48,204 nt of DNA from a virus (Duplodnaviria > Caudoviricetes), in the IMG/VR virus record IMGVR_UViG_3300021185_001469, positions 1 to 48,204 of that record. One strand, written 5' to 3'. The notes under the pieces were generated by a model. The model saw only the letters and a list, made by a program, of their open reading frames with translations, was not told the DNA's origin and ran no database searches. The position numbers and the translations under genes are program-made. Positions 733 to 48,204 of this stretch are shown here, one piece after another. Each line of letters starts with the position of its first letter. Position 1 is the first letter of the stretch.

Positions 733-2277
733 ATGGCTGTAAAAATTCAAGGAACGGTTGTTATTGATGACAGCCGCAACGTGGTCAACGTAGTCAATGT
801 AGACGGGCGTGATGTTTCCGCAGATGGAACAAAGCTCGACACGGTTGAAACCAACGCAGATGTTACAGATGGCGCTAATGTCGGCGCAGCGCTCACAGGA
901 TACACCACAGAGACATCAATCGCTTCTGGCGACATAATCCCCGTGTATGATACCTCCGCGACTGCATGGCGCAAGGCAACGATTTCGGACGCTATTGCAG
1001 CGGGTCCAAAGGGCCAGAAGGGTCAAACTGGTGTCACAGGGGCCAAGGGGCAGAAAGGCGAGATCGGAGCCACAGGAAGCACTGGTGCCACAGGGCCAAC
1101 TGGACCAAAAGGGCAGAAGGGCCAACAGGGCATCCAAGGCATCCAAGGCATTACGGGAGACACAGGCGCAACAGGACCATCGGGATCAAATGGGTCTAAC
1201 GGGGCCAAAGGTCAAAAGGGTGAGATCGGAGCCACAGGCCCAACAGGATCGGCTGGCTCGAATGGTGCAAAAGGCCAGAAGGGGGAAGTAGGTTCTCAAG
1301 GTATTGAAGGACCAACGGGGCCAACAGGGCCGACTGGTCCAAAAGGTCAAAAGGGTGAGGTTGGAAACACTGGCCCCACTGGGAACACAGGCGGCACTGG
1401 ACCTACTGGACCGAAAGGACAAAAAGGGCAGACAGGGACCACGGGTGCAACAGGTTCGCAAGGTGGAACTGGCCCAATAGGACCGACAGGATTGACAGGA
1501 CCGACTGGCCCTACTGGTTCCACTGGTGGCACAGGTCCGCAGGGTCAAAAAGGACAAAAGGGCCAGACTGGTAACACGGGCGGCACTGGCCCCACTGGTT
1601 CCAAGGGGCAAAAGGGTGAGATTGGGGCTACTGGCTCAACAGGGGCGCGTGGACCGACAGGGCCAACGGGTCCAACGGGAGCGAAGGGCCAGAAAGGTCA
1701 AACTGGTTCGACAGGTGGCGCAGGGCCGACTGGCCCCACAGGAGCGCGAGGACCAACCGGACCTACTGGACCCACGGGTCAAAAAGGCCAGAAGGGGCAA
1801 ACTGGGAACACTGGTCCCACCGGATCTGGCGGCCCGACTGGGTCTAAGGGCCAAAAAGGACAGACGGGTTCCACGGGTCCGACTGGTGCGCGAGGCCCAA
1901 CTGGCCCGACGGGTGCGCGTGGACCGACAGGGCCAACGGGTGCGCGAGGCCCGACAGGGCCAACAGGTCCAGCGGGAACACCATCTACTTCATTTGGTTC
2001 TGTAGGTTCTTATCAATGGTTGATTTATAACCCCGTTGGATACAGCCCAAAAGTTGTTGCAAATAGTACATATGCGTCATCAAATTTTGCATCTTGTGGT
2101 GGATTGCGAATGTCGGCTGGCAGTGGATATGGGTCGGGTAACCATACTTACGGAGGGAACGGAAATACTACTGGACCTTCAATATCTGGAACGTGGCGCT
2201 CTATGTCATATGCTTATACTGGCCGTGTTGTAAACACATGGATGCAAGCGGCGGGTCTTTTTGTGAGGATTTCTTAA
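733..2277 (+). CDS. Collagen-like tail/head fibre protein
   Basis: 109 uninterrupted Gly-X-Y triplets (1003-1983) between a short N-terminal domain and a C-terminal domain ending SGTWRSM...GLFVRIS, typical of phage fibre tips. Confidence 0.92.
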
Positions 2278-2697
2278 ATGGTTGAAATTACTGAATATCG
2301 TGAGGCTGTAAAATATAATGACGGCATCATGACCGTGCAAATAAGGCATCCTGATTTTGGCTGGATTAAATACACGATAAATCAATATGATCTCGACAGC
2401 ACGATTGACAACGAAGCTTTGCTTGCTCTTATTGGAGATAATTATTCTTTAGCCTCTGGGCAACTTTTGCATGAGTGGAATATGGGTATTGCTATAACCA
2501 GATGTAGGGAATTTGTTATGGCTATGGAGGGCATCCGAATTAATTTAACTGATGATAAAATAGAGATATTGGACGCATATATAATGAAAACAAATGATGC
2601 TATTCATTCTTTAGATTATCAAATATCTGACCCATTCCCCCCAAGTGGGGAGCCTGATTTCTTAATTGATCATGGGATTAATGTGAAAGATTTTTAA
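2278..2697 (+). CDS. Putative tail fibre assembly chaperone
   Basis: Abuts the fibre gene; IRHPDFGWIKYT motif resembles fibre-assembly proteins. Confidence 0.55.
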   Translation: MVEITEYREAVKYNDGIMTVQIRHPDFGWIKYTINQYDLDSTIDNEALLALIGDNYSLASGQLLHEWNMGIAITRCREFVMAMEGIRINLTDDKIEILDAYIMKTNDAIHSLDYQISDPFPPSGEPDFLIDHGINVKDF

Positions 2698-2718: not shown

Positions 2719-3504
2719 ATGAGGTTCAGAGAACCAAAGATTACTTTTTACGGCGAAAAAGAATTTATCGACTGCTTTCCAACTCCCGATAAATCGGCAA
2801 AGTTTATGCCCTCTTGGTATAAAAAAATGCCCGTGAATTTGAATAGTGGATCAAAGCAAGATCATGGAACAGTAAAAACCTGTGTTCCGTTTAGGGATGC
2901 GATGACAAATGGATTTATAGTTCCCCTTTGGCATAGTGTTGACATTGCGGTTCGAGATGATGGAGCTTTGGCGGCTAATTTCCCATCTGACCTTTCAAGA
3001 GATTTGTTGGCGAGGTCATCAGATAAAGGAGAAGTTCCAAATTTTGATGCGGAATTAGGTTCAGTATCTGGGCATCCACCAAATCAATTCTCAGATTTCG
3101 CCTCTATTGATCGAAGCGTTTACAAAAATTCGACCAGTATAATTAAGTTTCACAGCCCTTGGATTTGTAAGACAAGAAAGGGTTGGAGTATTTTGGTCAA
3201 GCCGATTGCAAATAATTTTATGAACCCAGTCGTTCCGTTCGAAGCTGTGATCGACACCGATCGTTATAATGTAAAGCTTAATTTTCCCTGTTTTGTGCGA
3301 ACCGATAAAGATATATTTAGCCTAAAAATGGGTATGCCATTAGCGCAGATTATACCTTTTAAGCGGGAAAAATTTTCATCGGGCATTAAGGAATTGAGCA
3401 AAAAGATTGATAGAGAAAACAGCCTATCAAGAAAAATGTTAAATTTGTACGGTCGCAATGCTTACAGAGATTTATTCTGGCATAGGAGGAGAAATGCAAA
3501 ATAA
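2719..3504 (+). CDS. DUF6065-like conserved phage protein (paralogue of 45170-46018)
   Basis: P.WYK, TVK.C.PF.DA...G.I.P, KF.SPW, IDTD.Y...NFP and G.P..QIIPFKRE motifs; GGAGG RBS. Confidence 0.7.
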   Translation: MRFREPKITFYGEKEFIDCFPTPDKSAKFMPSWYKKMPVNLNSGSKQDHGTVKTCVPFRDAMTNGFIVPLWHSVDIAVRDDGALAANFPSDLSRDLLARSSDKGEVPNFDAELGSVSGHPPNQFSDFASIDRSVYKNSTSIIKFHSPWICKTRKGWSILVKPIANNFMNPVVPFEAVIDTDRYNVKLNFPCFVRTDKDIFSLKMGMPLAQIIPFKREKFSSGIKELSKKIDRENSLSRKMLNLYGRNAYRDLFWHRRRNAK

Positions 3505-4027
3505 ATGGCTTTTCTGGCGCAGTGAAGTTCCCGATGATATTATCGGTCATATTTTGAAGAAAGCGCAACAAGCGGAGATTGATAGGGGCGAGGTTTTTAG
3601 CGGTGATGGTAATGATGTAAGATCAAGCCGTGTTGGCTGGCTTACTGGAGATTTAGAGCTTCAGTTGTTACTTTATCGGTATGTAGACTTAGCTAATCGG
3701 GAGTGGGGTTTTAACGTATGGAACCAAGCCGATATTCAGTATACCGAATATCATGCATCTGAGGATGGTCATTACACATGGCATCACGATGTGAATTTTT
3801 TATCTGATAGACATCGGAAGATTTCAGTCACGTTACAGCTTTCAAGCCCTTTAGATTATGAAGGCGGGGATTTCGAATTTGCTGAACAAGAAAGCCCAGA
3901 CTTCTCTGCAAAAGAAAAGGGAACGGTTTTGGTATTTCCAAGCTTCTATCACCATAGGGTTACTCAAGTGACAAAAGGAACTAGGAAATCTTTGGTGGCA
4001 TGGTTTGAGGGGCCAGTATGGCGGTGA
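3494..4027 (+). CDS. 2OG-Fe(II) oxygenase, prolyl-4-hydroxylase-like (2OG-FeII_Oxy_3)
   Basis: HHD...RKIS...YEGG...FPS...HRVT.V..G.RKSLV.W signature; AGGAGGA RBS before ATG 3494. Confidence 0.92.
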   Translation: MQNKWLFWRSEVPDDIIGHILKKAQQAEIDRGEVFSGDGNDVRSSRVGWLTGDLELQLLLYRYVDLANREWGFNVWNQADIQYTEYHASEDGHYTWHHDVNFLSDRHRKISVTLQLSSPLDYEGGDFEFAEQESPDFSAKEKGTVLVFPSFYHHRVTQVTKGTRKSLVAWFEGPVWR

Positions 4028-4587
4028 TTGAAGAACTTTTCCCTCATAAGGTTTACATGCAAGAAAACCTTTTGGACGAACAAAGTCATGCTAAATGTTT
4101 AGCATCGGCAGAGAAATTATATGAAAGTTATGACGGAGATAATGATTTCGGATGTTTTGTCTGGTCATCTATCAATGAAAAAACACTGCATAACGATCCA
4201 GAATGGGATTTTCTTACTGAAAATGTTTCTCGTCACATTGAATGGTTTGCAAAATATTTCGACGCATCAAAGCCATTTGAGTGTAAAGGTGCGTGGCTGA
4301 ATGTTTACGAGAGAAACTTTTATCAAGAAAAGCATACACACCCAAGGACGCATTTCAGCGCAGTTTATTTTTTAGAGGCGAATGAAGATGCCGCTCCACT
4401 TGCTATATGCAATCCTTTTGAAAACCAGCTTCCAATAGAAACACATGAGGGCTTTGATACAATCCAGATAATTCCACCAAAACAAAACTCTTTGATCATA
4501 TTCCCCTCATATCTTCCCCATTACGTTCCCTCAAATGTAAGCGGACGAAGAATGACTGTTGCTTTTAATTATTTGCAAACTCTTTGA
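4018..4587 (+). CDS. 2OG-Fe(II) oxygenase, TIGR02466/2OG-FeII_Oxy_5 type
   Basis: W.N...HTHP..SAVYF...IFPSYLPH.V..N...R.TVAFN. Confidence 0.88.
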   Translation: MAVIEELFPHKVYMQENLLDEQSHAKCLASAEKLYESYDGDNDFGCFVWSSINEKTLHNDPEWDFLTENVSRHIEWFAKYFDASKPFECKGAWLNVYERNFYQEKHTHPRTHFSAVYFLEANEDAAPLAICNPFENQLPIETHEGFDTIQIIPPKQNSLIIFPSYLPHYVPSNVSGRRMTVAFNYLQTL

Positions 4588-4604
4588 TCGGAAAGGTGGG
4601 AACG

Positions 4605-5255
4605 ATGGATGTAAAAGAATTTAACTTATTAGGAACCCGCGCTTTTCAAATAGATAATTTTTATGACAATGTGGGGTTTATCATGGACGTTCTTTTATCT
4701 GGGCCTACAAATCAGGTCATTACAGAGCATCCCCTGCACGGGAAAGAGTTTTATGACCTACGCCACCACAGGAAAGAACCCACCCTTAAAAAATATACCG
4801 ATCAAGTTGTCGCCCTTTTAAACGATACAAGTTTTGACGTTTATAGAGAAGATGGCGTCGATGTTTTAGATACCAACTTTATGCGGTGGAAGAAATCCGA
4901 CTGGAATAATTACGAAGATAATTTTTGGTTTCCGCATTTAGATAATGGGTGGGTTTGTTTGGTATATCTGAATGAAGCTGAAACAAATGGAACCAATATT
5001 TACGAAGATAAATATGGCAGTATTTACAAATACGGCGGGCGTGTAACGCAGGAAGATCGTGATCCTTGGAAGCGCAAGTCTGATTTTGAACTGGTAGATT
5101 ATCTTGAACCCAAATTTAACAGGGGCTTTCTGTTTGATGCTTCTAAGGTTCCACATGGCGCTGCGGTTAATGACGAAACATATTTCTTCACAGAAGCGCA
5201 AAGGGATTATGGAAGGCATAGATTAAATCAGGCTTTGTTCTTTTTCCCTTCTTGA
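4605..5255 (+). CDS. DUF6445-like putative 2OG-Fe(II) oxygenase
   Basis: IDNFY, PHLD, LVYLN..GT, KFNR..LF...HG, RLNQ..F motifs. Confidence 0.72.
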   Translation: MDVKEFNLLGTRAFQIDNFYDNVGFIMDVLLSGPTNQVITEHPLHGKEFYDLRHHRKEPTLKKYTDQVVALLNDTSFDVYREDGVDVLDTNFMRWKKSDWNNYEDNFWFPHLDNGWVCLVYLNEAETNGTNIYEDKYGSIYKYGGRVTQEDRDPWKRKSDFELVDYLEPKFNRGFLFDASKVPHGAAVNDETYFFTEAQRDYGRHRLNQALFFFPS

Positions 5256-5264
5256 GGCCCAGCG

Positions 5265-7031
5265 GTGGCTATAGTTTATCAAATCTCCCTGCACGGCGAT
5301 GCTTTTGATGCGAGAGGCAAAGATTGGGATCAAATAATAGCGGAGAGCGGATGTAAGCCCGATATGGGGTGGAAAGACCCGCTCCACGGCAGAACCCTGC
5401 TAGAAACAGAGTTTGGTTGTTCAGTGAGCCATTTTAGGGTTTGGCAGAAGATTGTTCGCTCTGGCGTGGCGGGTATTATTCTTGAGGAAGATGCGGTTTT
5501 TTCATCTTTTGATGTTTCAGAGATAGATGGACTTTTAAAATCTTATGATAGCGTTTGGCTAGGTCATAGGGAAAACACCCTCGGATATTGGTATAACGCC
5601 CATGCTTATGCGATAAGTCCAAGGACTGCTTCTATATTGTGCGAAGGGTTCGCGGAAAACGTTATCCCCGCCGATGAATGGTTGCCCCTTAAGCTAAAGA
5701 ATTATTCTAACTATTTTTATCGCCCCGAACTTGTTAAACAGATACCACGGTCAATAAGGCCAAGCACCATAGAAAAGGAAGCAAGAATGCAAACTCACGT
5801 TTTAACGGTAGGAACCGATCAAAGTAGAATGTTTATGCTCGAACAGTCAAGCGAAAGGCATGGGATTAGTTTCTTAAATTTAGGTGATGGGGTGGAATGG
5901 CGCGGCGGCTCTATGTCGGAAACGGGAGGTGGTCAAAAAATAAATCTTGTTCGCAGCCATTTGCAATTTTTACCTGATGATGACCTTGTTTTGTTTTGTG
6001 ATGCTTATGATGTTATAATTAGCGATAACCTCGAAACAATCGTAGAGAGATTTTTGGGCTTTGATTGCGATATTTTGTTCGCGGCAGAAAGGGATTGTTG
6101 GCCTGATAAGGGGCTTGAAAAGAAATTCAAGGAAACTGGAACGGCATATAGATACCTTAATTCTGGTCTTTATATGGGAAAAGTTGAAGCTCTAAAGAAA
6201 TTTTTTCACCGAGACTTAGATGACGCAGAAGATGACCAACTTTGGTCGCAGCTTGCTTTCTTGTCCGGTCCTCATGAACAGAATGTTTTGCTTGATACTG
6301 AGGCATATGTGTTTCAATGCAGCGATCTTTTTTGTCGCGTCCTTGAGGGGCGATTGATAAACGAGATTTGTTCTCCGTGTATTTATCACGGTAATGGAGG
6401 AGAAACAGCTAAACGAAAATTGAATGAAATATTTGATACATTTTCTTATAATCGTGTAGAGGCACCTGATGCGCCGCAATCTTCTGCCTACATAAACACA
6501 CTTGAATATCAAGAAGTCGCAAATGAAATTTTGATAACGCCCCTTTTTACTCAAGAGCAATGTGATGAAATAATTTGGAAAGCCAACAGCACAGGTAAGT
6601 GGCGCTCAATGGAGGGCGATAAGTTCCCAGCGCAAGAAATTAGGGTAAGAGAAATTGGGCTTTGGGAAGAAATCGAAGCGATTTGGAAAGATAAGCTTGG
6701 AAAGATTGCTGAAAAGCATTGGGAGCCTATGGCCCATATTGGGCTTCGTGACGCATTCGTTATGAAATACACTTTAGATACGCAAACAAGCCTCGGATAC
6801 CATACTGATGCCTCTCTTGTAACTGGAAGTGTTAAATTGAACAGTAGTTACGAAGGGGGCCAGTTGGTTTTCCCTAGGCAGAAATTTGATAATAGTTCTG
6901 TTAGTAACGGGGCTTGTATATTATTTCCAAGCGAGGTCACGCATGGTCATAAGGTTGATCCCCTTATATCTGGTGAAAAATATAGTTTAACTATGTGGAC
7001 AAGCCGATTTGAAGGCGATGTGAATGGATAA
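5265..7031 (+). CDS. Three-domain collagen-modifying enzyme: GT25 (COLGALT-like) + PLOD/LH3-type glycosyltransferase + PLOD-type lysyl hydroxylase (2OG-Fe(II))
   Basis: DPLHGRTL...EFGC..SH..W...ILEED...AYAIS...PADEWLP; WRGG...GGGQK...FCDAYD...FAAE..CWP...YLNSG...DDQLW...HGNG; FV.KY...HTDAS...YEGG...THGH. Confidence 0.9.
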   Translation: MAIVYQISLHGDAFDARGKDWDQIIAESGCKPDMGWKDPLHGRTLLETEFGCSVSHFRVWQKIVRSGVAGIILEEDAVFSSFDVSEIDGLLKSYDSVWLGHRENTLGYWYNAHAYAISPRTASILCEGFAENVIPADEWLPLKLKNYSNYFYRPELVKQIPRSIRPSTIEKEARMQTHVLTVGTDQSRMFMLEQSSERHGISFLNLGDGVEWRGGSMSETGGGQKINLVRSHLQFLPDDDLVLFCDAYDVIISDNLETIVERFLGFDCDILFAAERDCWPDKGLEKKFKETGTAYRYLNSGLYMGKVEALKKFFHRDLDDAEDDQLWSQLAFLSGPHEQNVLLDTEAYVFQCSDLFCRVLEGRLINEICSPCIYHGNGGETAKRKLNEIFDTFSYNRVEAPDAPQSSAYINTLEYQEVANEILITPLFTQEQCDEIIWKANSTGKWRSMEGDKFPAQEIRVREIGLWEEIEAIWKDKLGKIAEKHWEPMAHIGLRDAFVMKYTLDTQTSLGYHTDASLVTGSVKLNSSYEGGQLVFPRQKFDNSSVSNGACILFPSEVTHGHKVDPLISGEKYSLTMWTSRFEGDVNG

Positions 7032-7572
7032 GTTCTTTGTCGAGATAGGGGCTGCAAATTTCGATACATTGTTGCCCCTTGCTGACGCTGGTTGGGGTGG
7101 CATTGTAGTGGAGCCAATTCCAAAAATGGCGATGGAGCTTAGAAAGATTTACGCGGATACAAGCGTCAGGGTTATCCAAGGCGCTGTTTCCGACTTTGAT
7201 GGCGAGGTCGAAATTGCCGTGGCGCGTGATGATGGCTCTTGGTTATCTGGGTGTTCGCATATAATTTCAGATACCCATTTAGGATATAAATTGAGCAAAA
7301 GCCCAGACAGGCAAGGTGATTTTGAGCAAACCATAAAATCAAAATGCTTTACACTTGAAACGTTACTCGAACAGGTTCCTAGCGTTGATTTACTAAAGGT
7401 TGATGCAGAAGGTCACGAATTAAATATTTTTTTAAATTACTCCTTCAATGTTAAGCCAAGGATGATCAAGGTTGAACACAAGCACGTTGATGATAAAATT
7501 CTTGCTCGCAAGCTTGCGTTAAATGGCTATTTGGTTTGGACCGAAAAAGATGATATATATGCGATAAGCTAA
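7024..7572 (+). CDS. FkbM family SAM-dependent methyltransferase
   Basis: FFVEIGA, GIVVEP, VDLLKVDAEGHE, IKVEH motifs. Confidence 0.88.
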   Translation: MDKFFVEIGAANFDTLLPLADAGWGGIVVEPIPKMAMELRKIYADTSVRVIQGAVSDFDGEVEIAVARDDGSWLSGCSHIISDTHLGYKLSKSPDRQGDFEQTIKSKCFTLETLLEQVPSVDLLKVDAEGHELNIFLNYSFNVKPRMIKVEHKHVDDKILARKLALNGYLVWTEKDDIYAIS

Positions 7573-7584
7573 AAGGGGTTCAAA

Positions 7585-9180
7585 ATGGCGTTTGGTATCG
7601 GTGCGTTTTCAGATCATGCCTTTGGGGATGATGGCGCAACAAAATTTCAGATTTCAAACGTCAACATCACAACGGGAAGCCCGACTGTTCCTGATGCTGA
7701 TTTCACAGAAAATAATGTTTTCTCGACAGCAAATATAGATCTTGGGCAACCATCCGTTGCTTCTACTTCTTTCAATCAGGGCCAGACACTTACAACGAGC
7801 GCGTTAGAGGCACAGAACCCAGTTCTTGGGTCTGCTACCATGTCAGAGGAAGAAACCTTTACCACTGGCGAGCTTACAGGCGCGGCCCCGATCCTTGATA
7901 CTGCTTCTATTGTTCAAGATCACGATCTTCAACCTCAAACCCTTACGAGCGCGGCTCCTGTTCTTGACAATGGGCCAATGTCTGAGGATGAAACATTTGC
8001 CACCTCTGATTTAAGCTCGGGTGTTCCGACACTGGGAAATCCGATTATGGTTCGAGCCATCGGGATGCCCACGCAAGATTTAGATACGGGCGCTCCTGTT
8101 TTAGGCGAACCAACATTTGGACAAACTCACAATATCGTTCAAGGTGAACTTCTGTCTGGGGTTCCCAATGTTTCTGATGCTTCAATGTTTGAAGATGAAA
8201 ACTTTACAACGATTGAGCTAATAACAGACAGACCTCAAATCCCGCTTATTTTACTTGTTGAAAATCATGGCTTCACAACGCCAGATTTAGAAGCTGGATC
8301 TCCAAGCGTTCCCGCATTGCAGCTTGTAGAGGAAGAAACCTTTACGGCTGGAAATCTTGAAACTGGCGCGGCCTCTGTTCCTTCGACTGCGATAGATCAA
8401 GAGCATATCTTTACAACGTCAAATCTTGACACTGGTGCGCCAGATGTTCCCGCGCATGGAATATCCGAAGATGAAACCTTTACGACTTCAAACCTTATCA
8501 CCCCAGCCGTAGAGATATTTGGAAGCACAATTGTTCAAGGCCATAATTTTGCGCCTTTGAATATCGAAGCAACGCCAGAAGTTCCCGATATTTCAATGTC
8601 CGAAGATGAAACCTTCTCGGCAAACTCAATAAGTTCTGGAAGCCCAGATTTAGAAACAGCTTCAATCAATCAAGAGCATCAGTTGGTTCCAGATGGTTTA
8701 GATGGCGCTTCTCCAGTATTAGATAGCGCGACAATCTTACAAATTCACTCTATTGTTCCAAATAGTTTGAGTGGAAATGCACCAGTATTAGGAACTGCAA
8801 CCGCAGATATAACAAACACATTTGCTCCACCAGATTTCTCTGGATCAGCGCCAATAATTGACGCCGCAAATATGTCAGAAGAAGAAACCTTTACAACAGG
8901 AGAGTTGATTTCTGGACAGCCAGATTTAGGTTCTGCGCCAGTTGTTCAAGATCAAGCATTGATCGCGGATGGGGTTTTGTCTGGATCTCCTGATATTGCT
9001 CAATGTCCATTTACGGAAAATAATGTTCTGGTGGCAAACCTGATCACCACTGGAAGCCCAACCATACCGACTTTGATCTATGATGCGGCTCTTGGAAGGA
9101 TTATAGACATTGATCAAGACAGCGCCAGCCGCGCTGAGTTATCTGTCACAGGCCCGAACAAAGTTGAAATCGCGGCATAA
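7585..9180 (+). CDS. Acidic structural protein with about 21 tandem 23-aa repeats
   Basis: Repeat unit like SEEETFTTGELxxGxPxLxxAxx; N-terminus MAFG..AFS..AF typical of marine phage virion proteins. Confidence 0.75.
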   Translation: MAFGIGAFSDHAFGDDGATKFQISNVNITTGSPTVPDADFTENNVFSTANIDLGQPSVASTSFNQGQTLTTSALEAQNPVLGSATMSEEETFTTGELTGAAPILDTASIVQDHDLQPQTLTSAAPVLDNGPMSEDETFATSDLSSGVPTLGNPIMVRAIGMPTQDLDTGAPVLGEPTFGQTHNIVQGELLSGVPNVSDASMFEDENFTTIELITDRPQIPLILLVENHGFTTPDLEAGSPSVPALQLVEEETFTAGNLETGAASVPSTAIDQEHIFTTSNLDTGAPDVPAHGISEDETFTTSNLITPAVEIFGSTIVQGHNFAPLNIEATPEVPDISMSEDETFSANSISSGSPDLETASINQEHQLVPDGLDGASPVLDSATILQIHSIVPNSLSGNAPVLGTATADITNTFAPPDFSGSAPIIDAANMSEEETFTTGELISGQPDLGSAPVVQDQALIADGVLSGSPDIAQCPFTENNVLVANLITTGSPTIPTLIYDAALGRIIDIDQDSASRAELSVTGPNKVEIAA

Positions 9181-29707: not shown

Positions 29708-31594
29708 ATGGCTTTTCCAGTGTATATCAAAGCGGGCAAAACCCGCCTCTCAATCGCTAAAGAGATCAGGGAAGTGAACCGTTTGAGAATGGGTTACGAG
29801 AAAAGCATGGCGCGAAAGCTCCAAAGCCTTTTCCTCAAGACAGCCAGACAAGCGGCCAAGGCTTACGAGGTCGGCAGCAATATCGAAGCGGCCACCAGCG
29901 ATCTTGAGGCAGAGCTTGGGGCGGTATTTAGGGCGACATATACAAGCGTGATTGATAAGTTTGCCAGCCGTGTCACGGAGAACAGAAAGGCAGAAAGCCA
30001 ATTTCAAAGCCTGATCTTTCAATATTACGCAAGAGAGGGCGCATCAAAGGTTGCGGGTGTTGCGGCAACAACCAGACGAGGCATTTTAAAAGCCATACAG
30101 CTAGGGGAAACTGAGGGGCTAGGGGTTGATAAGACAGCCAAGCTGATCGTTGACCGCACAGGCGGCACAATCGGGCGCTCAAGGGCGGCGACTATTGCAA
30201 GGACAGAAACCCATGCGGCTGCGTCTTTTGCCACTGACGAAGCAAACAGGGAACTCGGGTTGCCAGCACAAAAGAAGCGTTGGGTCTCTGTTGGCGACAG
30301 TAGGACAAGGCCAAGCCATGCAGCGGCTAACGGTCAAGAGGTCGGTATTGATGAGCCTTTTATCATCAGAGACAAGGGCGTTGAGATAGAAATGAAATAC
30401 CCTCACGATGGATCGGGCGGGGCTTCAAACAATATTAATTGCAGATGCTTGGCAGTTTATTTCACTGATGAGGACGATCTATTTGACGATGGCGGCGCGG
30501 AGATACCCGTTGAACCTGTTTCTCCCGCTGCGCTTGCTGTTCCAGATGCGCCCGTTGTCTCCATTCCAGATGATCCATTTGGGCCAAATGCTTTATTTGT
30601 ATTGCCAAGGAATACAGCGCTTAATGATGCCAATATTCCAATTCCCAAGAAAAGAAAAAGCTTAGATAAAATTCACGATTATGTAGACAGCAAGTTTGCA
30701 GATCCAATAGCTCAAAGAGAAATAAACGAAAATGTTGGCATTAATTGGACGCGCAGAAATCCATCCATGATAGGTAGCGTTAAGCTTTCTCAGGCCACCC
30801 CAAGGGCTTTAGCCTATGTAGCCCAGACCGTCGAAGAATTGGAATATATGGGAAAATATATGGGCGTAATTCCGCTGCGCGGCATCGTTCATGGAAGGGG
30901 AGACCGCAACGGGGATCAGGGCGGCGGCGTAATGGGCCTAAACAAAGCGGCAATCAATGCTTATGCGGATGCTGCGGAAGGCAAAATTCCCGATTACGAT
31001 GATCTAGTTAAAAAACAAGATAAAGTGAGAGCGGAATTTAGAGAGGCCAAGATGGCTTGGTGGGAGCATAGGCAAGATAATTATCCCTCCTATATGCGGC
31101 CAGAAGATTATGCAAGAATGGATAAAGATCCAATTCGCAAGAGATATGACGATTTATCTATTCAATACAAAGAGATCGCTAATCAATTCGCAATTACCGA
31201 CAATTATAGACGCAGGGGCGGGGAAAATATTCCTTACAAAATTGGGGATGATCTGTCTAAAAGGCCGTGGTCCACAAAGTCTCACTTCACTGACAATTTA
31301 GATAAAACAAGGGCTTTGATGTATCACGAATTTGGACATCATATCCATCAAACCTACAAGCTCAAAAGAAGGTACAATCGCGGAGAGAATTATCTTGAAA
31401 GCAAGCTAACCAAGTTTTGGAACAGTAAGGAAAAATCAGAATTGGATTATTACGCGCCCAGTAAATACGCCATGACAAATCAATATGAATATTTTGTTGA
31501 AAGTTTTGCCATGTATATGATGGACAGAACCGACTTGATCCATCCCGAAATGAAAACATTTATTGATGATTTGATAAAAGAGAGGGGAAAATAG
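29708..31594 (+). CDS. Mu gpF/SPP1 gp7-like minor head protein with C-terminal zincin metallopeptidase-like domain
   Basis: RA.TIARTE, K.W....D.RTR.SH...NGQ, INCRC; C-terminal HEFGH and SKYA.TN..EYF.ESF. Confidence 0.88.
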   Translation: MAFPVYIKAGKTRLSIAKEIREVNRLRMGYEKSMARKLQSLFLKTARQAAKAYEVGSNIEAATSDLEAELGAVFRATYTSVIDKFASRVTENRKAESQFQSLIFQYYAREGASKVAGVAATTRRGILKAIQLGETEGLGVDKTAKLIVDRTGGTIGRSRAATIARTETHAAASFATDEANRELGLPAQKKRWVSVGDSRTRPSHAAANGQEVGIDEPFIIRDKGVEIEMKYPHDGSGGASNNINCRCLAVYFTDEDDLFDDGGAEIPVEPVSPAALAVPDAPVVSIPDDPFGPNALFVLPRNTALNDANIPIPKKRKSLDKIHDYVDSKFADPIAQREINENVGINWTRRNPSMIGSVKLSQATPRALAYVAQTVEELEYMGKYMGVIPLRGIVHGRGDRNGDQGGGVMGLNKAAINAYADAAEGKIPDYDDLVKKQDKVRAEFREAKMAWWEHRQDNYPSYMRPEDYARMDKDPIRKRYDDLSIQYKEIANQFAITDNYRRRGGENIPYKIGDDLSKRPWSTKSHFTDNLDKTRALMYHEFGHHIHQTYKLKRRYNRGENYLESKLTKFWNSKEKSELDYYAPSKYAMTNQYEYFVESFAMYMMDRTDLIHPEMKTFIDDLIKERGK

Positions 31595-45169: not shown

Positions 45170-46018
45170 ATGTTTTTTAAAAAGTTGCAGAAGCAACCGA
45201 CTATCGTTTTTCGCTGCCGCCCCGATATGATGGACGCCATACCAAGGCCAGCAAAATCCCCAAAGTTTTTGCCAGACTGGTTCAAGGTTTTGCCAAAGGA
45301 TTTAGAAAATTCTGGCCCCGCTGATGTTGGAACCATTAAGCGTTGTATTCCAGTATTAGAGGCTTGCTCACAGGGTTTTATCATTCCCTTGTGGGGGGAT
45401 TTGCACGTTAAGATTACAGTAGTTTACAAGCTTTTAGATAAAGACGGAAAACTCATTGCGGCGGTAAATGATGATAAAAAGCCTGACCTTATAGGAAAGA
45501 CTGTTGAAGGGTTTGAGGTTGCTAGTATCGAAGAAGATGGAAAGCATATTTGGTGCAAGTTTCCAGAGGGCTTTGATGGAGGTGCTGGCGCGGATATAAC
45601 CAAGCACACATGGGAACAGGTTGGCGAGGCTTGTGATTTAAAAAACTTTTCCCTTGGAAAGGTTCTATTAAAATTCTCCAATCCTTGGGTGATCGAAACA
45701 GAAGATGGCTGGTCTTGTCAGTTTAAAAATCCTGCTAACAACTGGCAGCATAATATTGAAATCATCGAGGGCGTTGTTGATACGGACACTTATCACCAAC
45801 AAATAAATTTTCCTTATGTTTGGACGGGAAATAAGGTTGGAGAGTGGGTTATACCAAGGGGAACGCCATTGATCCAAGTCATTCCCTTTAAGCGTGAAAA
45901 GATAAAAATGGGGATTGGCGTATATGATGTTAAGAAAATTGCAAAAGTCCACGCACTATTAGGTTCAACCTTTAAGGAAAGATATAGGCGTTTTTTTTGG
46001 CATAAACGTTCTAAGTAG
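45170..46018 (+). CDS. DUF6065-like conserved phage protein (paralogue of 2719-3504)
   Basis: FLPDWFK, TIKRC.P...A...G.IIP, KF.NPW, VVDTD.Y...INFP, GTPL.QVIPFKRE. Confidence 0.72.
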   Translation: MFFKKLQKQPTIVFRCRPDMMDAIPRPAKSPKFLPDWFKVLPKDLENSGPADVGTIKRCIPVLEACSQGFIIPLWGDLHVKITVVYKLLDKDGKLIAAVNDDKKPDLIGKTVEGFEVASIEEDGKHIWCKFPEGFDGGAGADITKHTWEQVGEACDLKNFSLGKVLLKFSNPWVIETEDGWSCQFKNPANNWQHNIEIIEGVVDTDTYHQQINFPYVWTGNKVGEWVIPRGTPLIQVIPFKREKIKMGIGVYDVKKIAKVHALLGSTFKERYRRFFWHKRSK

Positions 46019-46476: not shown

Positions 46477-48204
46477 ATGGCTCTTGTTGTAAAAGATCGT
46501 GTAAAAGAAAGTTCCACAACAACGGGAACGGGAACTTACACATTGGCAGGGGCCGAAACTGGCTTCCAAAGCTTCGCAGCGATTGGTAATGGGAACACAA
46601 CCTATTACGCCGCCGCTGCGGTTGATGGATCGGGATGGGAGGTTGGAATTGGTACATATACCGCTTCGGGAACAACTCTTGCCCGAACAACCATTCTTTC
46701 ATCTTCCAATTCAGATAATGAAGTAAGTTGGGGCGCGGGGGAAAAGCTTATTCTCTGCGTCCAACCCGCCGATAAGGCGAATATGCTAGACGCGAATGGA
46801 AAGGCCACAGGAACGGCTTTTTCTTCCCATGTAGATTTAAACCCAGTATCAGCCCCAACGCACTCAGAGGGCCGTGTATTCTACGACAGCACCCGCGACA
46901 GCCTAGCATATTATAATTCAAACAGCGCCATGACCATTCATGCGGGTCAAGATACTGTTTTGCGCGTTTATAATAACACTGGTTCGAGCATTGCTGCGGG
47001 TTCAGCGGTATATCTCACTGGGGAAACTGGCGCGGTTCCCACGATTGCAAAAGCAACGGCATCAGGAACGATTGACCAAGCTTATGCAATCGGGGTTTTG
47101 CCGACAGCTATCGCAGATAGCGCTTATGGGTTTGCGGTTACTGGTGGAATTGTTTTTTTCGATACGAGCCATCTTACAGCGGGCGAGCGTGTCAATGTGG
47201 GAACAACGGCTGGATCAACGCAAGTTGATGCTCCTAGCTATCCAAATTTTGCAACAGACCTTGGGCTTTGCTTGCTCGCTTCTTCCTCGAATGGATGCGT
47301 TTATATTGAGGTAGAACATCACGCTTTCGAGGTTTTGCGCGTAACGGGCAACAGCCATTTCGGCGCAGACGTTACGGTTGCAGGGGATTTGACGGTTCTT
47401 GGAACCCAAACCGTTGCTGACAGTAATAATATCGCTATCTCTGGCGCGTTTAATTATTTAAATCGTGGTGATAGCATCGGAGACACCAACACAGGTTTCT
47501 CAGGAACTGGATTAGATGATGGCGTATATACTGGTCATTATACGGGAACAGCTTCTAATAAGGTTTACTACGTTCAGATTGATAGTTCTCATGGAAGCGA
47601 TGACACTTTTAAATGGTCAAACGATAACTTCACAACAACGGTTGCGGCAAACGTTGCGATAACGGGAAACGATCAGGCTCTTTCAGATGGAATTAGCATC
47701 AAATTTAACGCCGCAAGCGGCCATACGGTTGGCGATAAGTGGACGGGAACGGCAAATCCTACCAACGTTGACACAGGTGTATTTTCAAACCGCAATACAG
47801 GAACGAGCGGCGTAGGCTTTACTCATGTGGGTTGGTTCTTCGATGTATCAGACGGGCAGTTTAAGTTTCTTAGCGCCTATGCACCAAATCCAAGCGGCAC
47901 TATTGATCTTACTGATAGCTCAGTCGTTTATGCCACCATTAAGGCTGGAACCTTTGTCGGCGCTTTAACGGGGGCGGTAACTGGAAATGTCACCGGAAAC
48001 TTAACTGGCGATGTTAGTGGATCTGTCACTGGAAACGTTACGGGAAATTTGACTGGCAACGTGACGGGCGATGTCACAGGTGATTTAACTGGCGCGGTCA
48101 CAGGGAACGTCACAGGAAATTTATCTGGAAATGTCACATCAACAGGAAGCAATAGTTTTGGAACGGTTGCGCTTGGTGATTGGACAATAACAGAAGATGG
48201 CAAT
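46477..48204 (+). CDS. Tail fibre-like structural protein, N-terminal part (about 609 aa with 1-712; absent from the ORF track because it runs off the end)
   Basis: GGAGG RBS; [20 protein letters not shown]...WEVG.GTY; open to the window end. Confidence 0.88.
47595..48204 (+). repeat. Terminal direct repeat, copy B
   Basis: Aligns without gaps to 1-610. Confidence 0.95.

Follow-up and report, generated by a model that had tools for sequence, protein, structure and literature searches.

The tailed-phage genome analysed here carries, in a single gene, what is probably an enzyme that modifies the Gly-X-Lys-Gly sites of a collagen-like fibre by hydroxylation and the addition of two sugars. The genome (Caudoviricetes) is IMG/VR record IMGVR_UViG_3300021185_001469, positions 1 to 48,204, and "the window" below means this whole stretch of 48,204 nt. 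The enzyme gene (5265..7031, + strand) encodes 588 aa, in which a GT25 domain, a glycosyltransferase (GT) domain of the PLOD type and a lysyl hydroxylase (LH)-like domain follow one another, and the gene for the putative fibre lies 3 kb upstream on the same strand. Glycosylation of collagen hydroxylysine (Hyl) is treated, to our knowledge, as an animal trait with an echo in giant viruses. We give somewhat better than an even chance to a broader view, in which widespread marine tailed phages carry a complete single-gene form of this animal-style modification that places Hyl-linked disaccharides on virion fibres, the smallest chain with all three activities and one suited to the bacterial cytoplasm, which represents a third, deep lineage alongside animal PLOD/COLGALT and the mimivirus protein L230 with its relatives (L230-type proteins), and in which the sugar modules (GT_PLOD or GT4, an extra GT25, a methyltransferase) are interchangeable.

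A three-domain gene

The open reading frame (ORF) opens with GTG and has no internal stop between 5265 and 7031. Pfam finds GT25 at aa 33-82 (7e-9), GT_PLOD at aa 176-387 (1e-41) and 2OG-FeII_Oxy_3 at aa 509-579 (1e-6), all above cut-off, and each of the 12 distinct PDB sequences that match the protein is LH3 (2e-35, in two stretches), mimivirus R699 (4e-30), L230 (LH domain, 3e-9) or COLGALT1 (4e-8). An AlphaFold2 model built from a 69-row alignment has three confident domains (mean pLDDT 86, pTM 0.45) joined by low-confidence linkers at aa 164-173 and 397-407. An initial annotation, made from the letters of the window alone, had proposed the same three domains, and Pfam, PDB sequence matches and predicted fold agree with it; every motif that it quoted is present in the translation. 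It was also right that the accessory (AC) domain of LH3 is missing, in that an AC profile built here has no match in the 588-aa protein and only an 11-residue linker separates GT_PLOD from LH. No secretion signal was seen by eye.

An assembly artefact or chance fusion is ruled out. Of the 120 best listed homologues, 119 possess the two GT Pfam families in full-length form, and in run X3, a run not flagged as a possible source, the gene is spanned, linkers included, by contigs that match it with 0 differences and 0 gaps. Purifying selection acts on each of the three domains, the ratio of nonsynonymous to synonymous substitution rates (dN/dS) being 0.04-0.21 in every one of them in 7 of 7 pairs. 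Across the 69 aligned family members (a count that here and below takes in all rows, short- and long-GT25 forms together) D76, D137, D246, D249, D323, D324, H375, Y502, H513, D515 and H562 are invariant, and mean identity to the query is highest in the GT25 domain (69%, against 51% and 65% in the other two).

Folds, residues and phylogeny of the domains

The N-terminal domain (aa 1-163; 5265..5753, +) is a COLGALT-like GT25, predicted to be an inverting GT from residue alignment to COLGALT1 and fold comparison. The initial annotation had suggested superposing an AlphaFold model on LH3 and COLGALT1, and this bore out both resemblances. For the GT25 domain, the predicted fold matches COLGALT1 residues 339-574 (9evj) with Z 16.8, root-mean-square deviation (rmsd) 2.7 and 171 aligned residues. 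The EDD-like and DE motifs of the COLGALT/GLT25D family are both present, E74-E75-D76 corresponding to COLGALT1 E435-D436-D437 (the middle Asp being Glu, E75, in 65 of 69 rows) and D137-E138 to D522-E523, and further equivalents are L9/C52 for L348/C412, R102 for K470, Y110 for Y494 and S167 for S569. The two-lobe layout of COLGALT, a non-catalytic GT followed by GT25, is not seen: the phage GT25 begins at residue 1. A GT25 profile scores COLGALT1 at 2e-31 versus 8e-9 for bacterial GT25 structures, and the Glu after the catalytic Asp occurs in 13/14 phage, 13/14 L230-type and 12/12 COLGALT-type rows versus 1/11 bacterial ones. In this Asp-Glu pair and in an aromatic-x-Asp-Pro motif the phage domain is like COLGALT and L230-type proteins and unlike other bacterial GT25s. 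LH-linked and COLGALT-type rows stand apart from 10 other bacterial GT25s in a tree (SH-aLRT 64), and the split from ordinary bacterial GT25s reaches SH-aLRT 96 in a build without COLGALT rows. Scores and motifs favour placing the phage GT25 nearer COLGALT than the GT25s of lipopolysaccharide (LPS) synthesis.

The middle domain (aa 174-396; 5784..6452, +) is of the PLOD/LH3 type by residue alignment and fold comparison. In the model it superposes on the LH3 GT domain (6wfv) with Z 31.0, rmsd 1.7 and 216 aligned residues, and on R699 with Z 30.0, rmsd 1.9 and 222 aligned residues. The features of PLOD-family GTs, namely the equivalents of DxxD, W145, poly-Asp and HGNG, are all present: D246/Y248/D249 align with LH3 D112/Y114/D115, W279 with W145, D323/D324 with D190/D191, and H375 in HGNG with H253. 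The motif FCDAYD, which the initial annotation had called DxD, is in fact DxxD (D246/D249 for D112/D115).

The C-terminal domain (aa 408-588; 6486..7028, +), assigned in the same way, is an LH-like Fe(II)/2-oxoglutarate (2OG) domain whose predicted fold is closest to the L230 LH domain (6ax6; Z 21.7, rmsd 2.1, 172 aligned), the best prolyl hydroxylase reaching Z 16.6. H513/D515/H562 align with LH3 H667/D669/H719 and Y502 with Y656, and V558, invariant in the family, aligns with the LH3 dimer residue L715 (L230 L873). Mutants of LH3 H667, D669, H719 and Y656 are stated to lose function in the text consulted of PMC11897130. The 2OG-binding Arg had been noted as replaced by Lys, and K572 does align with LH3 R729; the change is nevertheless not peculiar to the phage enzyme, since at the position of LH3 R729 / L230 R887 Lys stands in 27/27 phage and 5/28 L230-type rows, and in 0/14 animal rows (Arg in 14/14).

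Phage proteins form one group in the LH, GT_PLOD and joined trees (SH-aLRT 94, 99 and 100), apart from animal and L230-type proteins, and the phage LH branch is long. The per-domain phylogenies proposed earlier thus give these proteins a deep clade of their own. Their bearing on the origin of the animal collagen enzymes, also suggested earlier, is real, but the trees do not settle it: root and order of events are unstable, and the rooting of the LH and GT_PLOD trees rests on long-branch outgroups. A placement of animal PLODs inside giant-virus proteins, with phages as their sister, appeared in quick trees and was dropped when a topology test did not uphold it, a tree that keeps the giant-virus-type group whole exceeding the result of the unconstrained search by 8.9 log units (p-AU 0.74). 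The sequences point to a deep phage clade, for which we claim neither donor nor order of events.

Genetic linkage to lysine-rich collagens

The proposed substrate is encoded at 733..2277 (+), a 514-aa collagen-like fibre protein (Pfam Collagen, 8e-48; PHROG tail fibre families). Its uninterrupted collagen domain (aa 91-417; 1003..1983, +) counts 109 Gly-X-Y triplets and 24 Lys, all at Y (Gly-X-Lys) and forming 12 G-x-K-G-Q-K pairs; the Y positions also hold 58 Thr and 1 Pro, and the X positions 36 Pro. Collagen lysyl hydroxylases act at X-Lys-Gly, according to the part of PMC9546862 consulted. That the collagen-like protein is a virion fibre, and that it is the substrate of the enzyme, are both likely.

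Of 6154 candidate proteins, 962 score E 1e-10 or better against the window enzyme. Among the 150 best 50%-identity representatives of a GT25 profile search, 33 have the same three-domain, accessory-less layout, from which we take the family to be old and diverse. In 58 of 79 IMG/VR loci the enzyme has a collagen gene upstream of it on the same strand; the figure is 42 of 43 where the upstream DNA extends over 3 kb or more and 24 of 24 where it extends over 5 kb, and none of the 79 has one downstream. In the 4589 triplets of these linked collagens Lys accounts for 28.6% of Y and 0% of X, Thr for 48% of Y and Pro for 0.4% of Y. The full enzyme gene was also found in 11 GenBank phage records, including the cultured Roseobacter phage CRP-6 and Synechococcus phages S-CAM9, S-PRM1 and S-8S53/55/56, where it is annotated as hypothetical or as a 2OG oxygenase, and a collagen with Lys at Y lies upstream in 4/4 cultured phage regions examined, siphovirus-type and T4-like. 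CRP-6 has fibre, one small gene and enzyme side by side; the other oxygenases, DUF6065 and FkbM genes of the window were not found there. Roseobacter phages CRP-823, CRP-811 and CRP-406, whose central tail fibres are among the closest matches to that of the window, have neither collagen nor enzyme. The linkage of enzyme and collagen is kept across siphovirus-type and T4-like genomes while other neighbours vary.

Elsewhere, UniProt holds one 493-aa uncultured phage protein automatically named procollagen-lysine dioxygenase, and a sample of 401 bacterial genomes contained GT_PLOD in 2 cases, one of these being the contig with the window enzyme gene. All four matches in the bacterial genome collection (L080-L083; L083 45-578 is a Prochlorococcus single-cell record) lie on contigs of metagenome-assembled or single-cell genomes and are probably co-assembled phage DNA; L080 and L082 also have upstream collagen. 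Variant forms were seen as well. In some longer members (P0122-P0125, P0273) a further GT25 at the N terminus, a weak match to fucosyltransferases or a methyltransferase hints at glycans that are extended or capped; L140 (3778-5658) looks like a split form, with GT25 and GT_PLOD-LH as two adjacent ORFs; and L506/L507 (genome G492, C11 338617-340462) are two tandem stand-alone bacterial GT_PLOD genes without the equivalents of W145 and the first poly-Asp.

The converse search started from viral collagens drawn by three sequence patterns, the enzyme domains being sought within up to 10 kb; distinct loci (by shared 40-mers) with at least 3 kb downstream were counted, and those with short flanks (65/146, 43/123 and 60/140 by pattern) were left out. 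Of the GAKGQKG collagens, 22 of 37 have an LH domain next to them, and 15 have all three domains; for LH the corresponding figures are 0 of 50 in the salt-bridge-type GPKGDTGP set and 2 of 41 in the (GPT)3 set. When the latter is limited to its 33 collagens of at least 20 triplets, the two positives are the Lys-richest, with 18% and 23% Lys at Y, and the remaining 31, mostly Thr-rich with 0-14% Lys at Y, have none of the three domains nearby (Fisher p 0.002 by Lys, rows not independent). Lys at Y by itself does not mark a substrate, an idea rejected on the salt-bridge-type collagens, whose Lys also stands mostly at Y and which have no enzyme beside them. How often Lys is followed by Gly-Asp/Glu does differ between the sets, but this was fixed by the search patterns and is not independent of them. 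With loci grouped by the fraction of triplets in which a Y-Lys has something other than Gly-Asp/Glu after it, LH is present in 1/72 below 10% and 21/30 above. Enzyme presence follows collagen Lys content, which points to lysine, not threonine, as the target.

Among the 22 GAKGQKG positives, seven have other layouts (GT4-GT25-LH, GT4-LH, GT25-LH). GT4 is a retaining glycosyltransferase family, and its standing where the PLOD GT is missing fits a design of hydroxylation, first sugar and second sugar. A second LH-fusion lineage with these layouts, beside Lys-rich viral collagens, was observed at L088 11723-13984, L093 8460-10745, L100 5063-7522 and L114 8986-11232, and at further loci L105 837-2516 (-), L133 2973-4709 (-) and L134 5083-6501 (-); it has Arg at the 2OG site, and its LH domains group apart from the window family.

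Comparison with known collagen-modifying enzymes

The initial annotation took the protein for a new Rosetta-stone fusion, which it is not, and the notion of a first-ever fusion of GT25, GT_PLOD and LH was rejected on L230 and L230-type proteins. L230 joins an N-terminal GLT25D1-like GT to a C-terminal PLOD-like LH, both activities being shown in the portions consulted of PMC9614988 and PMC5802723, and it hydroxylates and glucosylates collagen lysines, adding glucose (Glc) (PMC9614988). L230-type proteins with all three domains intact exist: profiles find GT25 in 93, GT_PLOD in 81 and LH in 94 of the 94 retrieved. In the Atlas, an L230-type cluster of 881 aa is tied to Nucleocytoviricota; when viral contigs were searched for loci with P0127, one of phage type came up and none of giant viruses. 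The comparison with L230 draws on descriptions, on the Moumouvirus australiensis orthologue (P0211) and on L230-type relatives. Like L230-type proteins, the phage enzyme has the order GT25, GT_PLOD, LH in one chain and is accompanied by viral collagen-like proteins with Gly-X-Lys; unlike them (AC domain, 830-960 aa, about 300 aa longer, Nucleocytoviricota), it has 588 aa and no AC domain and comes from a tailed phage. GT_PLOD is decayed in P0211 (3e-5, below cut-off, no DxxD or HGNG), which would explain the separate R699 gene in mimivirus, whereas the phage middle domain is intact. A further difference from L230 is that the phage gene is linked to its proposed substrate and that the host is a bacterium.

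Human LH3/PLOD3 shares with the phage enzyme the GT domain fold, LH metal ligands, gating Trp and poly-Asp, but the phage chain has no AC domain, Lys and Ser in place of R729 and N676, a shorter loop near the LH site and an extra N-terminal GT25. COLGALT1/GLT25D1 is matched in the EDD-like motif and in the equivalents of D522/E523, L348/C412, K470, Y494 and S569, and differs in that the phage protein lacks the N-terminal non-catalytic lobe, has two deletions, one removing R354, and carries Asn for W495 and Ile for T571. R699 resembles the middle domain but forms a free-standing dimer of GT-AC chains that contain neither LH nor GT25, and bacterial LPS GT25s of the Lex2B/LgtB type share the PF01755 core (ExGC..SH, EDD, catalytic Asp) at far lower scores. 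Going by sequence, the phage protein may work like L230 plus R699, or like LH3 plus COLGALT1, and since it lacks defining features of each family we assign it to none of them. The structure of the LH3-COLGALT1 complex is solved, as the text consulted of PMC11897130 reports, so the fusion predicts no unknown interaction. New here are the occurrence in a tailed phage, the compact form without accessory domain, the intact middle domain and the linkage to a fibre; literature searches on phage lysyl hydroxylase, hydroxylysine, procollagen-lysine and collagen glycosylation found no description in bacteriophages, subscription literature being mostly uncovered.

Proposed activity and competing explanations

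We propose a collagen-modifying role because the best solved matches of each domain, by sequence and by fold, are collagen enzymes. The LH domain would make 5-hydroxylysine on fibre lysines, an activity that we consider very likely; the GT25 domain would add a first hexose by an inverting mechanism with D137 as the base, which is likely, if less firmly so; and the PLOD-type GT would add a second sugar, a reasonable expectation held with somewhat less assurance again. The reaction would proceed in the infected cell on unfolded, newly made fibre chains, with 2OG, O2, Fe(II), Mn(II) and UDP-sugars supplied by the host. The sequence is compatible with two products: Glc-Gal-Hyl, which animals make with galactose (Gal), and Glc-Glc-Hyl, which has been proposed for mimivirus. 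The collagen-modifying role advanced in the initial annotation gains from the collagen gene context, which that annotation had not drawn on, but its order, Gal first and Glc second, cannot be taken for granted: Glc is the sugar that L230 adds, and R699, reported to glucosylate Gal-Hyl, may prefer Glc-Hyl according to the part of PMC12279948 consulted. As to purpose, one may speculate that the sugars stiffen or shield a triple helix with almost no Y-position Pro, or alter contact between fibre and host surface.

Several observations weigh against this proposal. The GT25 of the window clade is without about 23 residues (the helix that holds the UDP contact R354 of COLGALT1, deleted in this clade and kept in cyanophage-type alignment rows) and a further 19 or so after the K470 equivalent; N111 replaces the COLGALT1 acceptor contact W495 in 69/69 rows, and I169 replaces T571. 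Alanine at sites lost or changed in the phage domain (R354, W495, T571) impairs GLT25D1, according to the text consulted of PMC12987934. The split of GT25 from bacterial GT25s is not recovered in a tree from a looser alignment, so that its support depends on the build (96, 64, none). The LH site departs from that of LH3 at K572 (R729) and S522 (N676), and it has no counterpart of the loop that follows the WSGG motif in LH domains of animals and of the L230 type. On the genetic side, L075 has the enzyme and no collagen in 4.1 kb upstream, the single miss among the 43 loci above; the bacterial locus L492 807-2715 (genome G083) has an LH-like gene and a GT25 with no collagen in the 3.3 kb examined; 15 of the 37 GAKGQKG collagens have no LH match in the flanking DNA examined; and the loci of the linkage tests are related, some common to the forward and reverse sets, with habitat uncontrolled. 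L492, in an apparently cellular context, is a gene pair: first a free-standing PLOD-like hydroxylase, then a GT25 that is extended at its C terminus.

The alternative that survives best, though unlikely, is a partial pathway, in which LH hydroxylates fibre Lys and one sugar or none follows, the GT25 or the accessory-less PLOD GT having lost or changed its activity. The missing R354 helix and the Asn at W495 speak for it, as does the reported need of R699 for an AC-assisted dimer, and the decay of the middle domain in the Moumouvirus orthologue means that such loss occurs in the family; set against this, all 69 of 69 rows keep the catalytic Asp and the metal ligands in both GTs, dN/dS is 0.04-0.21 in both, and GT25 is the best-conserved domain by mean identity. 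It is improbable that the GTs act instead on Y-position Thr, or on Thr plus Hyl, with a separate job for the oxygenase. Thr glycosylation occurs in bacterial and worm collagens, Thr makes up nearly half of Y in the linked collagens and the Hyl-binding W495 is replaced, but none of the three domains turns up near any of the 31 Thr-rich, Lys-poor collagens, and the two Lys-richest of the same draw have LH; the Asp-Glu pair and aromatic-x-Asp-Pro motif, moreover, are those of COLGALT/L230-type proteins and not of other bacterial GT25s.

A slim chance remains for a host-directed or small-molecule enzyme (LPS or surface glycan, or a kojibiose-like disaccharide), the collagen linkage being that of a travelling tail-module cassette. 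Pfam GT25 is named for LPS synthesis, R699 is reported to make kojibiose from free glucose, L075 and L492 are exceptions to the linkage and several unrelated oxygenases crowd the region; yet the GT25 profile prefers COLGALT1 to bacterial GT25s, the linkage persists in siphovirus-type as well as T4-like genomes although neighbours change, and presence tracks collagen Lys content. That the oxygenase is a prolyl or other hydroxylase is very improbable: collagen prolyl 4-hydroxylases do have Lys at the 2OG site and the phage clade sits on a long branch, but the predicted fold is nearer L230 LH than the best prolyl hydroxylase, the linked collagens have almost no Pro at Y, and Lys at the 2OG site also occurs in L230-type proteins.

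If the proposed enzyme for hydroxylation and glycosylation is active, tailed phages encode their own O-glycosylation of a virion protein, which would matter for how stable the fibres of abundant marine phages are and how they meet the host, and some "auxiliary" 2OG oxygenases of cyanophages would be reassigned to virion building. The cassette is carried by cultured phage-host pairs (Roseobacter CRP-6; Synechococcus S-CAM9, S-PRM1, S-8S55) and is directly testable. Glycosylated collagen cannot yet be produced in bacteria, a gap stated in the part of PMC9546862 consulted, which a compact enzyme of the bacterial cytoplasm could address.

The window genome and neighbouring genes

The window genome is of siphovirus type (terminase, portal, capsid, tail tube, tape measure), is rated 100% complete and occurs in seawater metagenomes; its central tail fibre is closest to those of Roseobacter phages, which makes a Roseobacter-group host likely. 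Directly 3' of the fibre gene is a small gene resembling tail fibre assembly genes (2278..2697, +; PHROG 4628, weak, 9e-5). There follow, on the same strand, neighbours that vary between loci: a DUF6065 gene (2719..3504; Pfam; 23/87 loci), a 2OG-Fe(II) oxygenase of PKHD/prolyl-hydroxylase type (3458..4027; 44/87, absent in CRP-6), a 2OG-FeII_Oxy_5 / TIGR02466-like oxygenase (4018..4587; 6/87) and a gene assigned to PHROG 1644 that has no Pfam match and in which the eye finds an HxD...H pattern (4584..5255; 9/87). An FkbM-family methyltransferase (7024..7572, +; 40/87 loci) overlaps the end of the enzyme gene by 8 bases and is possibly a sugar methylase; P0273 has a methyltransferase fused to the same three domains as the window enzyme. 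No nucleotide-sugar synthesis gene is among the 44 scanned ORFs of the 114 listed in the window. In S-8S55 and S-PRM1, nucleotide-sugar epimerase annotations lie 3-7 kb downstream of the enzyme (L085 28785-29483 and L086 25299-26090) and could supply the sugar donor.

The DUF6065 genes at 2719-3504 and 45170-46018 (+) each lie just 3' of a fibre gene or its assembly gene and may be fibre-associated. An acidic, repeat-like protein of 531 aa without confident family (7585-9180, +) has a homologue in 44/87 loci, including CRP-6. At 29708-31594 (+) a MuF-like head protein has a C-terminal zinc-metallopeptidase-like extension (weak Pfam ATLF/Peptidase_Mx1 at about aa 530-608, about 4e-6). The two ends of the window (1 to about 650 and about 47550 to 48204) overlap, in that an ORF from 46477 continues past the last base and its final residues reappear at the beginning, one or more of them changed; the record thus looks circular, with slight strain mixture.

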